Positions 2,790 through 16,956 of a stretch of DNA of 64,000 nucleotides are shown here, piece after piece; positions within the stretch are counted from its first letter, which is position 1, and every line of letters starts with the position of its first letter. A program made the translations under genes and the position numbers. Source of the stretch: Escherichia coli. Its GTDB lineage: Bacteria; Pseudomonadota; Gammaproteobacteria; Enterobacterales; Enterobacteriaceae. Under the pieces are notes generated by a model that had not been told where the DNA came from, made no database searches, and worked only from the letters and a program-made list of their open reading frames with translations. The DNA lies in NCBI RefSeq assembly GCF_045037415.1, contig NZ_CP173438.1. The stretch is one strand, 5' to 3'.

Positions 2790-4248
2790 ATTGTTGGTAA
2801 ACGTAACGCCTTCGGAAACTCGAGTGGCGTATATTGATGGCGGTATTCTGCAGGAAATTCATATTGAACGTGAGGCGCGACGCGGAATAGTAGGCAATAT
2901 CTACAAGGGTCGTGTAAGTCGTGTACTTCCGGGTATGCAGGCGGCTTTTGTAGATATTGGGCTGGATAAAGCCGCGTTTCTTCATGCATCTGACATCATG
3001 CCGCACACCGAATGTGTGGCGGGTGAAGAACAAAAGCAATTCACGGTGCGCGACATCTCGGAACTGGTCCGTCAGGGGCAAGATCTGATGGTGCAGGTGG
3101 TGAAAGATCCGCTTGGCACTAAGGGTGCGCGCCTGACCACCGATATCACGCTGCCTTCTCGCTATCTGGTGTTTATGCCAGGGGCTTCTCACGTTGGGGT
3201 ATCCCAACGAATTGAAAGCGAATCAGAACGTGAACGCCTGAAAAAAGTGGTCGCAGAGTATTGCGACGAGCAGGGCGGGTTTATCATCCGTACTGCAGCG
3301 GAAGGGGTTGGCGAGGCCGAACTGGCCTCCGATGCTGCTTATCTGAAACGCGTCTGGACCAAAGTTATGGAGCGTAAAAAACGCCCGCAGACCCGTTATC
3401 AGCTGTACGGCGAACTGGCGCTGGCGCAGCGTGTTCTGCGTGATTTCGCCGACGCCGAACTCGACCGCATTCGCGTTGACTCACGCCTGACTTACGAAGC
3501 ATTGCTGGAGTTTACCTCAGAGTACATTCCCGAGATGACCAGCAAGCTGGAGCATTACACCGGACGCCAGCCGATTTTCGATCTCTTTGATGTCGAAAAC
3601 GAAATCCAGCGAGCGCTGGAACGCAAAGTAGAACTGAAATCCGGTGGTTATCTGATTATCGACCAGACCGAAGCGATGACCACCGTGGACATCAATACCG
3701 GGGCGTTTGTCGGTCATCGCAATCTGGACGACACCATTTTCAATACCAATATTGAAGCGACGCAGGCTATCGCTCGCCAGTTACGGTTGCGCAATCTGGG
3801 CGGGATTATCATTATTGATTTCATCGATATGAATAATGAAGATCACCGTCGCCGCGTGCTGCACTCGCTGGAGCAGGCGTTGAGCAAAGATCGGGTGAAA
3901 ACCAGCGTTAATGGTTTTTCGGCGCTGGGGCTGGTGGAGATGACGCGTAAACGCACCCGCGAAAGCATTGAGCACGTACTGTGTAACGAATGCCCAACCT
4001 GCCACGGTCGCGGAACGGTGAAAACCGTGGAAACGGTATGCTATGAAATCATGCGCGAGATTGTTCGTGTCCACCATGCTTACGACTCCGACCGTTTCCT
4101 GGTCTATGCTTCTCCGGCAGTAGCCGAAGCCTTGAAAGGCGAAGAGTCACACTCGCTGGCGGAAGTGGAAATTTTCGTTGGCAAACAGGTTAAAGTACAA
4201 ATTGAACCGCTCTATAACCAGGAGCAGTTTGACGTCGTAATGATGTAA
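2779..4248 (+). CDS. rng: Ribonuclease G
   Basis: ORF-track frame 2761..4248; start chosen at ATG 2779 ([13 protein letters not shown]...), giving 489 aa; RNase E/G catalytic-domain family; overlaps yhdE by 11 bp. Confidence 0.93.
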
Positions 4249-9838: not shown

Positions 9839-10768
9839 TTACTTCTCTTTCCCGCGCCCGTGCATCTCCTGAAACAATTTACCGACCTCAACAAAATAAT
9901 CCGTCAGCGAGTTGATCACGACCTGTACCTTCAGCGGCAGCTTATCTTTTTCGGTATATAACGCATAAACCGGGCGTGGATCTGACTGGTAACGTGGCAG
10001 CAGGATCTCCAGCTCCCCACGATTGATCTCGTTGATCACCCACATCAGCGGCACGTAGGCGATCCCGGCACCCGCCGTCAGCCAGCGCACCAGCGTCATC
10101 GGATCATTAGTCACAAATCTTCCTTGTGGGATCAGGCGAGTCGAGATCCCTTCCGGTGCGATCAGTTCAAATTCATTGTCGGGCCGCACGCTGTATTCAA
10201 GCCATGAGTGACTACTTAAATCGGCGGGTTTTTCCGGTATGCCGTATTGTGTGAGATAGCTTTTTGCGGCGCACACCACCATTGGCATCGCGCCCAGACG
10301 GCGGGAAAACAGGCTGGAATCTTGCAACGCGCCGACGCGGATCACCACATCCAGACCGTCGGCAATCAGGTCGGGGGCAGGAATTCCGGTAACCAGATTG
10401 ACGCTCAAACCTGGGTATTCTTTCAGCATTTTTGCTGTCAGCCCGGCGAGAACATTTTGTGCCATAGTTGAAGAACAGCCAATGCGCAGCGTCCCGATGG
10501 GGGTGTTATTGAAGGCATACAGTTGCTCATGAACATCCTGCACTTCATGGAGCATCCGACGGCAGCCCTGGTAGTAAATTCTACCGGCTTCGGTCAGGCC
10601 AATGCTGCGTGTGCTACGGTTTAACAGCTTTACCTGCAACTCATCTTCCAGTTTTGACACCGTCTGACTGATGGACGAAACGCTCATCTGTAGCTGTCTG
10701 GCGGCGGCGGTAAAAGAGCCAAATTCAACTACTTTGGCAAACACCGACATGCGTTTTAGTCGTTCCAT
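9839..10768 (-). CDS. aaeR: LysR-type transcriptional activator AaeR
   Basis: 309-aa ORF with N-terminal LysR HTH (FTAAARQLQMSVSSISQTVSKLE); divergent from aaeXAB. Confidence 0.9.
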   Translation of the reverse strand: MERLKRMSVFAKVVEFGSFTAAARQLQMSVSSISQTVSKLEDELQVKLLNRSTRSIGLTEAGRIYYQGCRRMLHEVQDVHEQLYAFNNTPIGTLRIGCSSTMAQNVLAGLTAKMLKEYPGLSVNLVTGIPAPDLIADGLDVVIRVGALQDSSLFSRRLGAMPMVVCAAKSYLTQYGIPEKPADLSSHSWLEYSVRPDNEFELIAPEGISTRLIPQGRFVTNDPMTLVRWLTAGAGIAYVPLMWVINEINRGELEILLPRYQSDPRPVYALYTEKDKLPLKVQVVINSLTDYFVEVGKLFQEMHGRGKEK

Positions 10769-10950
10769 TATTCACTCTGACTTAAAAGTGATTTAGATCA
10801 CATAATATAGATAACAGCATAACAGTTACGTTAATATATTAAATATCAATCTACAGCAATGTTGCTCTCGCCCGGCTTTCTATGCCCTTCTCTGCGGCGA
10901 CAGATGCTGAAAATAATAACGCCTGCTCTCTCTATACAACCAAGGTCAAC

Positions 10951-12099: not shown

Positions 12100-14067
12100 A
12101 TGGGTATTTTCTCCATTGCTAATCAACATATTCGCTTTGCGGTAAAACTGGCGACCGCCATTGTACTGGCGCTGTTTGTTGGCTTTCACTTCCAGCTGGA
12201 AACGCCACGCTGGGCGGTACTGACAGCGGCGATTGTTGCCGCCGGTCCGGCCTTTGCTGCGGGAGGTGAACCGTATTCTGGCGCTATTCGCTATCGTGGC
12301 TTTTTGCGCATCATCGGCACATTTATTGGCTGTATTGCCGGACTGGTAATCATCATTGCGATGATCCGAGCACCATTATTGATGATTCTGGTGTGCTGTA
12401 TCTGGGCCGGTTTTTGTACCTGGATATCCTCGCTGGTACGAATAGAAAACTCGTATGCGTGGGGGCTGGCCGGTTATACCGCGCTGATCATTGTGATCAC
12501 CATTCAGCCGGAACCATTGCTTACGCCGCAGTTTGCCGTCGAACGTTGTAGCGAGATCGTTATCGGTATTGTGTGTGCAATTATGGCGGATTTGCTCTTT
12601 TCTCCGCGATCGATCAAACAAGAAGTGGATCGAGAGCTGGAAAGTTTGCTGGTCGCGCAATATCAATTAATGCAACTCTGTATCAAGCATGGCGATGGTG
12701 AAGTTGTCGATAAAGCCTGGGGCGATCTGGTGCGACGTACTACGGCGTTACAAGGTATGCGCAGCAACCTGAATATGGAATCTTCCCGCTGGGCGCGGGC
12801 TAATCGACGTTTAAAAGCGATCAATACGCTATCGCTGACGCTGATTACCCAATCCTGCGAAACTTATCTTATTCAGAATACGCGCCCGGAATTGATCACT
12901 GATACTTTCCGCGAATTTTTTGACACGCCGGTAGAAACTGCGCAGGACGTCCACAAGCAGCTCAAACGCCTGCGGAGAGTGATCGCCTGGACCGGGGAAC
13001 GGGAAACGCCTGTTACCATTTATAGTTGGGTCGCGGCGGCAACGCGTTATCAGCTTCTCAAGCGCGGCGTTATCAGTAACACAAAAATCAACGCCACCGA
13101 AGAAGAGATCCTGCAAGGCGAACCGGAAGTAAAAGTAGAGTCAGCCGAACGTCATCATGCAATGGTTAACTTCTGGCGAACCACACTTTCTTGCATTCTG
13201 GGCACGCTTTTCTGGCTGTGGACGGGCTGGACTTCCGGCAGTGGTGCAATGGTGATGATTGCGGTCGTGACGTCACTGGCAATGCGTTTGCCGAATCCAT
13301 GCATGGTGGCGATCGACTTTATCTACGGGACGCTGGCAGCGCTGCCGTTAGGGCTGCTCTACTTTTTGGTGATTATCCCTAATACCCAACAGAGCATGTT
13401 GCTGCTGTGTATTAGCCTGGCAGTGCTGGGATTTTTCCTCGGCATAGAAGTACAGAAACGGAGATTGGGCTCGATGGGGGCGTTGGCCAGCACCATAAAC
13501 ATTATCGTGCTGGATAACCCGATGACTTTCCATTTCAGTCAGTTTCTCGACAGCGCATTAGGGCAAATCGTCGGCTGTGTGCTCGCGTTCACCGTTATTT
13601 TGCTGGTGCGGGATAAATCGCGCGACAGGACTGGACGTGTACTGCTTAATCAGTTTGTTTCTGCCGCTGTTTCCGCGATGACTACCAATGTGGCACGTCG
13701 TAAAGAGAATCACCTCCCGGCACTTTATCAGCAGCTGTTTTTGCTGATGAATAAGTTCCCAGGGGATTTGCCGAAATTTCGCCTGGCGCTGACGATGATT
13801 ATCGCGCACCAGCGCCTGCGTGATGCGCCGATCCCGGTTAACGAGGATTTATCGGCGTTTCACCGACAAATGCGCCGCACAGCAGACCATGTGATATCTG
13901 CCCGTAGCGATGATAAACGTCGTCGGTACTTTGGCCAGTTGCTGGAAGAACTGGAAATCTACCAGGAAAAGCTACGCATCTGGCAAGCGCCACCGCAGGT
14001 GACGGAACCAGTACATCGGCTTACGGGTATGCTCCATAAGTATCAACATGCGTTGACCGATAGTTAA
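12100..14067 (+). CDS. aaeB: p-Hydroxybenzoic acid efflux pump subunit AaeB
   Basis: 655-aa polytopic membrane ORF directly after aaeA. Confidence 0.9.
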
Positions 14068-14070
14068 GTC

Positions 14071-14099
14071 AAAACCGACGCCTGAAGCGTCGGTTTTTT
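14071..14099 (+). terminator. Rho-independent terminator after aaeB
   Basis: aaaaccgacgc-ctgaa-gcgtcgg followed by tttttt, 4 bp after aaeB stop. Confidence 0.7.
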
Positions 14100-14158
14100 C
14101 ATGGCTATACTTAGCGATGAACGGCAGAACTCGCCGCGAAACGTGACGGTGGCAACAG

Positions 14159-14431
14159 ATGAATATTTATACCTTTGATTTTGATGAGATTGAGAGTCAG
14201 GAGGATTTTTATCGTGACTTTAGCCAAACCTTTGGTCTGGCGAAAGATAAGGTACGCGATCTCGACTCACTATGGGATGTGTTAATGAACGATGTCCTGC
14301 CGCTACCACTTGAGATTGAATTTGTTCATCTGGGAGAGAAAACGCGTCGCCGTTTTGGCGCGTTAATATTGCTGTTTGATGAGGCAGAGGAAGAGCTGGA
14401 AGGGCATTTGCGTTTTAATGTTCGTCATTAG
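14159..14431 (+). CDS. yhcO: Barstar-like protein YhcO
   Basis: 90-aa [30 protein letters not shown]..., barstar-like fold family. Confidence 0.8.
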
Positions 14432-14433
14432 CG

Positions 14434-14458
14434 CAAAAAAAGCCCCCGAACCGGGGGC
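14434..14458 (-). terminator. Rho-independent terminator of yhcN (hairpin shared with yhcO 3' end)
   Basis: gccccc-gaacc-gggggc hairpin; on the minus strand it is followed by a U7 tract (A-run 14435..14441 on plus). Confidence 0.65.
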
Positions 14459-14485
14459 AATATCGTCGGACAAGACGATGAGGGT

Positions 14486-14749
14486 TTATTTGTACAGTTC
14501 AGCCGTAGCGTGCCAGGTGTCACCACTACGAGCTTCAGTAATCTGGTAGGCCGTTGCGCCTTTCTCTTCCGCTTTTTTGTTCAGCATTTCACGCATATCC
14601 ATTGGCGAAGACGCCACACCACTTACGGATACGGTCCCGATTGCTTCACGATTTTGTGCTTGTGCAGCATCAATGGAGTCGGCAGCGAATGCACCGAAAG
14701 AGAGAACAGAAAGTACGCTTAATGCAGCAACAGTGGTTTTGATTTTCAT
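14486..14749 (-). CDS. yhcN: Periplasmic DUF1471-family stress protein YhcN
   Basis: ORF-track frame 14486..14800; start chosen at ATG 14749 (MKIKTTVAALSVLSVLSFGAFA, signal peptide) with GAGGT Shine-Dalgarno 7 nt upstream; 87 aa. Confidence 0.8.
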   Translation of the reverse strand: MKIKTTVAALSVLSVLSFGAFAADSIDAAQAQNREAIGTVSVSGVASSPMDMREMLNKKAEEKGATAYQITEARSGDTWHATAELYK

Positions 14750-15112
14750 GATTTTTACCTCGACATAATCTTTTAGCTGGGCCTTTGTTTCGTGACCCAT
14801 ATCACAAAATCAAGTATACACTAATTATTGAACTAATTAATACCACGCTAACTGTTTCAGTTGATACTAAGTGTTAAAAATGTGAATTTTAATAACAAAA
14901 AAGAATTAAAAACACGATCATTTATTGTTAATTATAGTATTTTCAATTAGATAATGAATTTTGCATAATGTGCTTTTTTACTATATGTATTCATTGTGTG
15001 AATGATATGTCGCAGTAAAACGCACTATTCGTTAAATGAATCGCAGGGGAAAGCAGTGGGTTGATAGGCAAAAGCAACATTTTCCCCGCCGCCAGAAGCG
15101 ACGGGGCAGAGA

Positions 15113-15586
<474 letters not shown>

Positions 15587-15606
15587 TCACCCGATATGGT
15601 GGTTGA

Positions 15607-15645
15607 TACAACATTATTGTGCATACAGATGAATTTTTATGCAAA
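15607..15645 (-). promoter_or_regulatory. ARG-box operator (two adjacent boxes) for argR autoregulation
   Basis: Minus-strand TTTGCATAAAAATTCATC (15628..15645) fits the 18-bp ARG box consensus (TGAAT-W4-ATTCA core); a degenerate second box lies 3 bp away; 24-62 bp upstream of the argR ATG. Confidence 0.55.
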
Positions 15646-15942
15646 CAGTCAGCCCTGAAGAAGGCTGAAATAATGTTATGAAAGAGCGGGATTTTATCAA
15701 ATTTCGTTATTGAGAAACATGCCTGCGTCACGGCCTGCAAATTCTGCTTAAAAGTAAATTAATTGTTATCAAATTGATATTGTTTTGGCTGAGCGGTAGG
15801 GTATATTGTCACCACCTGTTGGAATGTTGCGCTAATGCATAAGTGACTGTTAATTACGTAAGTTAGGTTCCTGATTACGGCAATTAAATGCATAAACGCT
15901 AAACTTGCGTGACTACACATTCTTGAGATGTGGTCATTGTAA

Positions 15943-16956
<1,014 letters not shown>

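Follow-up and report, generated by a model that had tools for sequence, protein, structure and literature searches.

The 363-bp spacer between argR and yhcN in the chromosome of Escherichia coli was analyzed within a window of 64 kb (the whole stretch of DNA examined), where it lies 3' of argR (15113-15583) and 5' of yhcN (14486-14749), both genes being on the minus strand. This spacer is probably a composite region that combines the 3' end of argR with the silenced stress-promoter region of yhcN. It is a feature of an ordinary kind that is already known, since the entry 3383263_333, argR(+)/yhcN(+), is among the 78 promoter islands of E. coli K-12 listed by Panyukov and Ozoline (PMC3661553) and corresponds to approximately 14714-15045 of the window. 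A sequence-only reading of this DNA had placed an AT-rich region upstream of yhcN at 14750-15112, which is exact, and had interpreted it as a curved, nucleoid-protein-bound stress promoter that also contains the argR terminator hairpin. The nucleoid-protein binding and the stress promoter agree with the data given below, whereas the curvature is wrong or unproven and the description of the terminator is imprecise. The 1.3-kb stretch around the spacer was found to be identical in several sequenced strains.

The G+C content of the spacer is 0.333 compared to 0.520 for the whole window, a level of AT-richness that is reached by only 0.2% of all 363-bp windows. Within the first 50 kb of the window, 27 spacers measure at least 40 bp, and the argR-yhcN spacer has the lowest G+C content among them, the pooled value of the others being 0.441. 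It is therefore more AT-rich than its surroundings, as had been claimed. Positions 14750-15040 form the AT-rich part (G+C 0.27), the segment 14864-14963 has the lowest G+C content of any 100 bp in the 64 kb (0.17), and the argR-proximal part with the hairpin and a C-rich tract (15040-15112) reaches 0.575. A total of thirteen A/T runs of at least 4 nt were found, compared to an average of 3.2 in tiles of the window and 5.8 +/- 2.2 in mononucleotide shuffles of the spacer, with thirteen being reached in 0.5% of the shuffles (p ~0.005). The number of tracts is thus beyond what composition alone yields, and the many A/T tracts noted earlier are real. Internal repeats in the spacer consist solely of short, imperfect, AT-rich matches.

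Curvature was predicted by a Bolshoy-type wedge model. Averaged over the spacer it is 11.8 degrees per 30 bp, compared to 9.4 for the window, which places the spacer in the top 6.6% of windows, with a local maximum of approximately 23 degrees per 30 bp at 14880-14920. However, these values are not above those of dinucleotide shuffles of the spacer itself, and the 10-11 bp periodicity of AA/TT is not significant in the spacer (power at 10-11.5 bp of 0.71 against a shuffle 95th percentile of 1.11), so the description of this DNA as curved is not supported. Greater curvature than in ordinary promoters has been reported for promoter islands as a class (PMC3661553). This may be true of the class, although for the argR-yhcN spacer the wedge model lends no support beyond the effect of AT-richness.

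Promoter-like density was measured with our own sigma-70 weight matrix (not PlatProm) as the number of hits of at least 6 bits per 300 bp. It peaks in the spacer with thirteen hits, seven on the plus strand and six on the minus strand, which is the highest value in the window (mean 1.9). Promoter islands are regions of at least 300 bp with very many predicted starts on both strands, and by our own scan the spacer is such a region. Their mean A+T content of 71% is also comparable with that observed here, namely 66.7% for the spacer, 73% for 14750-15040 and 81% for 14849-14957. The latter segment is the AT-rich core (G+C 0.19), which lies inside island 3383263_333, has a constant length and carries the densest promoter-like sequence. 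The link to horizontally acquired genes, which is typical of promoter islands but not strictly defining, was not found at this locus.

Published data support the binding of both H-NS and RNA polymerase. The H-NS code of the island is 'O', which stands for the chromatin immunoprecipitation microarray (ChIP-chip) data of Oshima and Grainger but not those of Kahramanoglou, and a foreign gene is flagged at the island by one of five predictors (PMC3661553, Table 1). Shimada et al. observed a peak of RpoD holoenzyme in the argR>yhcN spacer by systematic evolution of ligands by exponential enrichment (SELEX), which overlaps an H-NS SELEX site, and named TTGAAA-18-AATAAC as the promoter of yhcN in K-12 (PMC3946193). 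The nucleoid-protein binding expected by the sequence-only reading is therefore documented by two kinds of published H-NS data.

Two observations were made on the island in other data. In strain Z247 (NZ_CP021207.1), a 1070-bp ISApl1 element of the IS30 family is inserted at 14894-14895, in the AT-richest core, with a 2-bp AA duplication, and this copy sits between the marbox module and the yhcN core promoter described below. In addition, an antisense Term-seq 3' end at K-12 3385042(-), corresponding to approximately 15244 (+) of the window, lies about 130 nt inside argR, which indicates that a plus-strand transcript leaves the spacer. This transcript probably starts at a plus-strand promoter-like site of the island.

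An ArgR-anchored scan of species-representative genomes gave 80 loci, in fifteen of which yhcN is the next gene after argR, including those of Escherichia albertii, Citrobacter, Enterobacter, Kluyvera, Pseudocitrobacter, Superficieibacter, Mangrovibacter, Yersinia, Acerihabitans and Pantoea. The conservation of the layout was assessed in sixteen spacers (alignment A1 and motif scans). Spacer length is 357-380 bp in Enterobacteriaceae, and all the spacers compared are well below the local G+C content, with a minimum 100-bp G+C of 0.17-0.31. The elements follow a fixed order that starts with a hairpin, a reverse marbox-like site, the palindrome ATTCAC-N3-GTGAAT, a forward marbox-like site and an AT-rich segment, and continues with TTAGC..GGTATTAAT, TATACT, N7, GTGA-N6-TCAC and a leader containing GAGG. 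The forward marbox-like site starts 168-170 bp before TATACT in thirteen genera including Yersinia and Acerihabitans (168 bp in a Salmonella-like locus), while in E. coli the distance is 158 bp because Escherichia has an 11-bp deletion. By comparison, the distance from the argR stop codon to the same site is variable (132-179 bp).

Measured from the marbox to the core promoter, the AT-rich segment is 119-121 bp long in thirteen genera and 109 bp in E. coli. Its median pairwise identity is 0.58, with conserved blocks embedded in it. One such block, TTTTTAATTC..GTTATTAAAA (14887-14912, minus strand), consists of near-invariant columns and is recognisable in Yersinia and Acerihabitans; it may resemble a GAD box. 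The G+C content of yhcN equals that of argR (0.48 for both), and the conserved synteny and position-locked layout are not those of recently acquired DNA. The constant distance of the far-upstream module from the core promoter, as suggested by the comparison of sixteen genera, is the sole point found here that goes beyond the literature searched. Within the species, the window and K-12 (spacer at L001 1675-2038) differ at 19 of 363 positions in the spacer, 6 of 471 in argR and 1 of 264 in yhcN. In the spacer, the differences are concentrated in 14913-14939 and 15057-15098, and none affects the core promoter or the CRP site. In seven loci (L006-L011 and L015, at approximately 3700-3990), including Kluyvera, Pseudocitrobacter and Superficieibacter, a second yhcN paralogue of 44-61% identity was observed about 100 bp after the first, where Escherichia has the convergent yhcO.

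The upstream module was identified by scanning the 19-nt marbox consensus AYNGCACNNWNNRYYAAAY. The distal marbox-like site, AACGCACTATTCGTTAAAT (15019-15037, plus strand), points away from yhcN, has one mismatch and occurs in most Enterobacteriaceae spacers. The proximal site, AAAGCACATTATGCAAAAT (14958-14976, minus strand), points toward yhcN and has two mismatches in E. coli. This site is present in fourteen of the sixteen spacers, without any mismatch in seven genera, and its GCAC and AAA columns are invariant. A palindrome, ATTCAC-N3-(G/A)TGAAT (14989-15003), is located between the two sites in near-invariant or invariant columns, with its pattern found in nine of the sixteen spacers at up to two mismatches. 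In E. coli, the marboxes start 158 and 219 bp upstream of TATACT. The counterpart of the distal site in the Salmonella-like locus is TTTGGCAAATCATGC (L084 1749-1763), and the SoxS ChIP-seq motif reported at Salmonella yhcN, GCATGATTTGCCAAA (PMC10268841), is the reverse complement of L084 1749-1763, i.e., of the distal reverse site. Two marbox matches in 363 bp, each on a conserved block, together with perfect matches in seven genera, are not chance.

With respect to the mar/sox/rob regulon, the marbox sequence was thus found, whereas the position and orientation of class I or class II sites were not, and the authors of the Salmonella study file the yhcN promoter under 'Other promoters' (PMC10268841). 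No evidence of MarA, SoxS or Rob control of yhcN in E. coli was found in the literature searched. Other candidates for the conserved sequences were also considered. ARG boxes were rejected for the ATTCA..TGAAT palindrome as the order of the half-sites is wrong and a tandem ARG-box pair would need a spacing that is 2 bp longer, and no convincing match to the OxyR, Fur, FNR, PhoP or GadE motifs was seen by eye in the spacer.

In the core promoter, a conserved TTAGCGTGGTATTAATT block of invariant alignment columns (14835-14851, minus strand) includes a weak -35 element, TTAATT, which is separated by a 16-bp spacer from the -10 hexamer TATACT (14813-14818, minus strand; 8.3 bits in the position weight matrix), itself invariant in all sixteen spacers. 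A published drawing of the Salmonella promoter, which we checked against the sequence of the Salmonella-like locus L084, begins its span at TTAATT and reaches the same -10 element (PMC10268841 Fig. S1). In Yersinia, transcription of yhcN starts at -56/-57 from the start codon, giving a leader of 56-57 nt (PMC13033631), and the filter applied in the Term-seq data implies an E. coli start 21-200 nt upstream of K-12 3385522. On the basis of TATACT, the Yersinia start, the Salmonella drawing and the Term-seq filter, the +1 position of yhcN is placed near 14805 (minus strand), with a predicted leader of 56 nt.

The putative start is overlapped by a CRP operator, TGTGA-N6-TCACG (TGTGATATGGGTCACG, 14791-14806), which has one mismatch to the consensus, is centred at approximately +7 and is one of only two such near-consensus sites in the window. 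Its half-sites GTGA..TCAC are invariant in the sixteen genera, as is the whole arrangement TATACT-N7-GTGA-N6-TCAC. The operator is the 'novel' CRP site ttCGTGAcccataTCACAaaa reported by Footprint-seq with a Kd of 1.2 nM and a centre at K-12 3385490 (PMC12871828), and yhcN is also among the CRP SELEX targets (PMC3105977). From a centre near +7, CRP should act as a repressor, and deletion of crp in Yersinia raises the expression of yhcN; CRP would likewise be expected to repress yhcN in E. coli. Expression data from E. coli on CRP control of yhcN were not found in the literature. When RNAalifold was applied to the leader, the sole element recovered was the invariant CRP palindrome, and its lack of covariation fits a DNA site rather than an RNA stem.

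The remainder of the leader includes the Shine-Dalgarno sequence GAGG (14757-14760), which is invariant across the aligned spacers and together with the yhcN start codon (14747-14749) spans 14747-14760 on the minus strand. A possible RNA hairpin, UGGGUC-N10-GGCCCA (14778-14799, minus strand), was predicted with low confidence from the minimum free energy folds of twelve of fifteen leaders; it was not recovered by RNAalifold and its covariation is minimal. An RNA 3' end (K-12 3385522; 14765, minus strand) is found in the leader 16 nt before the ATG and is classed by Term-seq as 'orphan / upstream ORF -16' (PMC7815308 supplements 1 and 3). We rejected an upstream ATG (14798-14800, minus strand), which lies inside the CRP site and would open an in-frame 104-aa open reading frame (ORF), as the start of yhcN because this reading frame is not conserved in other genera. 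The ATG in those genera lies 2 nt further upstream, and the short frames that it opens vary in length from 5 to more than 10 codons. In E. albertii (L082 3290-3340), the ATG of yhcN has been lost by a 9-bp deletion in the repeat AAAATC-ATG-AAAATC; the gene apparently starts at GTG there, with the N-terminal residues unchanged. No hit in the spacer was obtained when 13900-16100 was scanned against Rfam at E <= 1, and the only ORFs of at least 30 aa starting in it are two TTG ORFs, one of 30 aa (14785-14877) and one of 33 aa (15061-15162) that runs antisense into argR. No conserved ORF or known RNA family was therefore found in the spacer.

At the other end of the spacer, a GC-rich hairpin with a 10-bp stem, CCCCGTCGC/GCGGCGGGG (minus strand, 15106-15084), is predicted by folding 6 nt after the argR stop codon, with a free energy of -20.3 kcal/mol and z = -3.3. 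A hairpin of unrelated sequence was observed 9-30 nt past the argR stop codon in all sixteen genera examined, and K-12 and the window strain differ by a compensatory change from C-G to T-A in the top pair of the hairpin (15098/15092). Because of this compensatory change and the hairpins at the same place in sixteen genera, the structure is considered to be under selection. The mapped 3' end of the argR mRNA (K-12 3385206; 15080, minus strand), which is 'primary' in the Term-seq data (PMC7815308 supplement 1), falls on the fourth A after the stem. The tail of the hairpin is AAAAUGUU in E. coli and AUAAUGCU, ACAUCUUC and similar in other genera, with no U-run directly after the stem in any of the sixteen. 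A consensus terminator scan made no call at 15084-15106, as there is no T-run. The terminator hairpin of the sequence-only reading thus exists, and the argR 3' end lies 4 nt past its stem (PMC7815308), but it is unlikely to be a classic intrinsic terminator since the GC-rich stem-loop is present without the U-rich tract.

The RNA after the stem contains a C-rich, G-poor tract (15024-15083, minus strand; C:G of 16:8 in E. coli), which is a candidate Rho loading site. Over the 60 nt after the stem, the C:G ratio is 2.0 in E. coli, 1.7-3.4 in fourteen other genera and 1.2 in one, and the C-rich, G-poor untranslated RNA characteristic of Rho-dependent terminators is thus found here. A 'Rho termination region' sensitive to bicyclomycin (BCM) was called at K-12 3385385(+), approximately 14902 of the window, with a score of 2.5 and p = 6e-6, where the 800-nt windows used include yhcN (PMC7815308 supplement 2). 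A hairpin that lacks a U-tract and is followed by C-rich RNA is likelier to be a protective stem left after Rho-dependent termination than a classic intrinsic terminator. It is thus more likely that argR transcription is terminated by Rho in the AT-rich DNA and that the RNA is trimmed back to the stem by exonucleases. Such a model, in which Rho-dependent transcripts are trimmed back to a protective stem-loop, was reportedly proposed by Dar and Sorek in 2018. Trimming to a stem at Rho-dependent ends is also discussed in PMC7815308.

The expression of yhcN is that of a stress gene, as had been suggested from its upstream sequence. Its RNA shows a log2 fold change of 9.1 at pH 4.4, i.e., approximately 2^9-fold (PMC10746267). 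It is up 15-fold with octanoate, alongside micF and the gad genes, and it is also induced by acrylic acid, for which cutting down the cloned promoter fragment did not improve the sensor. This very large induction range fits strong silencing combined with stress-dependent relief.

Taken as a composite region, the spacer would work as follows. The argR transcript would pass the GC-rich hairpin into C-rich RNA, be released by Rho in the AT-rich DNA and be trimmed to the hairpin, which would give the mapped 3' end. Further along, two marbox-like sites around the palindrome would form an upstream module for activators of the MarA/SoxS/Rob type, which may have a counter-silencing role. The AT-rich segment of about 110-120 bp, bound by H-NS and RNA polymerase in the published data, would hold the polymerase non-productively, so that yhcN would be near silent in unstressed cells. 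Transcription would start from the core promoter with its weak -35 element and TATACT, followed by the 56-nt leader, with the high-affinity CRP site lying over the start; as this site covers the transcription start, cAMP-CRP is proposed to add repression. Acid, organic acids and peroxide would then overcome the silencing and lead to an induction of up to approximately 500-fold.

More specifically, the argR-yhcN island could be a nucleoprotein switch of ancient origin that was inherited vertically and did not arise as a by-product of foreign DNA. In this proposal, a marbox-palindrome-marbox module would be held at a fixed distance from a CRP-occluded TATACT, the intervening AT-rich DNA would be a measured scaffold for H-NS and RNA polymerase, and factors of the MarA/SoxS/Rob type would counteract silencing without contacting RNA polymerase. 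The geometry agrees with this, as the distance is 168-170 bp in thirteen genera and about one helical turn less in Escherichia, and the length of the segment is constant while its sequence is free. We nevertheless regard the switch as a tentative proposal that is rather doubtful as a whole.

Several observations weigh against the composite region and the module proposed within it. One of the three ChIP data sets, that of Kahramanoglou et al., lacks H-NS binding at the spacer (PMC3661553), and the published H-NS nucleation motif TCGATAAATT has a single, uninformative match with two mismatches there. Neither the predicted curvature nor the phasing of A-tracts stands out. The bare marbox pattern is about as frequent in the window as expected by chance (17 matches for 16 expected), the marbox-like sites lie approximately 170-245 bp upstream of the start, outside the class I and class II positions, and yhcN is absent from the E. 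coli MarA target lists. The supplements of the Cappable-seq and SMRT-Cappable-seq papers contain no entry for a yhcN start in E. coli. Finally, as the 800-nt Rho windows take in yhcN, its induction by BCM could mimic read-through from argR.

Four other explanations were weighed. The simplest regards the hairpin as a classic intrinsic terminator of argR and the AT-rich DNA as an intrinsically curved promoter region. This agrees with a strong, structurally conserved hairpin, with an argR 3' end 4 nt past the stem, with the greater curvature reported for islands as a class (PMC3661553) and with the local bend of approximately 23 degrees per 30 bp at 14880-14920. We consider it unlikely, however, as none of the sixteen genera has a U-run directly after the stem, the terminator scan gave no call, and the curvature equals that of the spacer's own dinucleotide shuffles without 10-11 bp phasing. 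The AT-richness might instead be a scar of horizontal acquisition of yhcN, without any locus-specific regulatory architecture. Of the 78 promoter islands in PMC3661553, 75 are tied to predicted foreign genes, with one of five predictors giving a flag for argR-yhcN, and within E. coli the spacer diverges faster than the flanking genes (19/363 against 6/471 and 1/264). Against this, synteny, spacer length and several blocks are common to Enterobacteriaceae, Yersinia, Acerihabitans and Pantoea, the 48% G+C content of yhcN equals that of argR, and the differences within the species avoid the core promoter and the CRP site, which makes such a scar highly improbable. Hardly better placed is the idea that the spacer hides a separate product, whether a small RNA, a small protein or a leader attenuator that makes the 3' end at -16. 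In its favour, Term-seq gives a 3' end 16 nt ahead of the ATG, most genera have a predicted leader hairpin, and in E. coli the frame of yhcN is shared by an ATG located no more than 5 nt from the inferred start. Such a product is nonetheless very unlikely, as there is no Rfam match in the spacer at E <= 1, only the 30-aa and 33-aa TTG ORFs start there, the frames from the upstream ATG have no conserved length, RNAalifold finds the CRP palindrome only and no covariation, and no hairpin with a U-run precedes the 3' end at -16.

The remaining alternative is a second, distal promoter of yhcN in the AT-rich core, with a -35 element TTGAAA at 14946-14941 and a -10 element at approximately 14922-14917, which would be activated from the proximal marbox in a class-I-like manner, leaving the constant spacing to the proximal promoter incidental. 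The sequence TTGAAA-18-AATGAT scores 8.8 bits and represents the promoter named by Shimada et al. for K-12 (PMC3946193). The TGA of its -35 element is invariant and lies approximately 12 bp past the marbox, and most genera have TAnnnn 16-18 bp further. On the other hand, the sequence of the -10 element varies between genera (two of its six bases are different in K-12), and -10-like hexamers are expected by chance in DNA that is so AT-rich. The reports on Salmonella (PMC10268841) and Yersinia (PMC13033631) give a proximal transcription start only, and an independent promoter would not need a fixed 168-170 bp to the proximal -10 element. A distal promoter is possible but on balance doubtful.

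Other features of the window were noted in passing. The genes yhcO (14159-14431, plus strand) and mdh (16018-16956, plus strand) flank the yhcN-argR pair. Between the convergent yhcN and yhcO, a GC-rich hairpin, GCCCCCGGTTCGGGGGC (14442-14458), has an A-run and a T-run on its flanks and looks like a bidirectional intrinsic terminator, and the Term-seq 3' end of yhcO (K-12 3385823) maps there. A low G+C content (0.38) was likewise observed for the argR-mdh spacer (15584-16017), whose promoter-like density takes second to fourth place in the window. The aaeR/aaeX spacer holds the 100 bp that come second in AT-richness in the window (10754-10853, G+C 0.25); it has the sole other near-consensus CRP site (10787-10802) and is also a CRP SELEX and H-NS target in the papers that list argR-yhcN.

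Little is added by this analysis to what was known of the region, as its binding of H-NS, RNA polymerase and CRP, and of SoxS in Salmonella, is already in the literature, and yhcN is a well-known marker of acid and oxidative stress whose promoter has been used in a biosensor. Two by-products are the negative result on curvature and the re-reading of the argR 3' end as a protective stem without a U-tract, probably formed after Rho-dependent termination. An ancient, position-locked island is at odds with the proposal that promoter islands are linked to horizontally acquired genes, and argR-yhcN offers a compact system for the question of how a silencing and induction range of approximately 500-fold is built.

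The spacer can be compared with five known kinds of system. It shares with the promoter islands of Shavkunov, Panyukov and Ozoline a length of at least 300 bp, an A+T content of approximately 70% or more, dense promoter-like sites on two strands and the binding of H-NS and RNA polymerase. Unlike most islands, the locus is vertically inherited and syntenic, the spacer holds deeply conserved, position-locked factor sites, and yhcN is not permanently silent but is expressed very highly under acid. AT-rich upstream DNA, H-NS binding and a very large induction by acid or organic acids are also common to the H-NS-silenced promoters of envelope and acid stress, such as hdeAB, gadA/BC and bhsA, although no evidence of GadE or GadX was found for yhcN. 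The bhsA gene, with its comR-bhsA spacer, is a paralogue of yhcN and is likewise marked for H-NS and listed as a CRP SELEX target. As in the promoters of the mar/sox/rob regulon, the two yhcN sites fit the 19-nt marbox with one or two mismatches (none in several genera) and the distal one is occupied by SoxS in Salmonella, whereas their positions, approximately 170 and 230 bp upstream of the -10 element, are far outside the class I and class II geometry. The promoters with CRP over the start, namely that of crp itself and cyaA P2, resemble yhcN in having a near-consensus site past the -10 element that overlaps +1 and binds with nanomolar affinity, and in Yersinia yhcN is accordingly up in a crp mutant; for E. 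coli yhcN, both the repression and the position of the site relative to +1 are inferences. Finally, the argR end shares with trimmed Rho-dependent terminators a stable hairpin without a U-tract at the mapped 3' end, C-rich, G-poor RNA immediately after it and a region called as BCM-sensitive no more than 200 nt away, and differs from them in that its Rho-dependence is deduced from these features.

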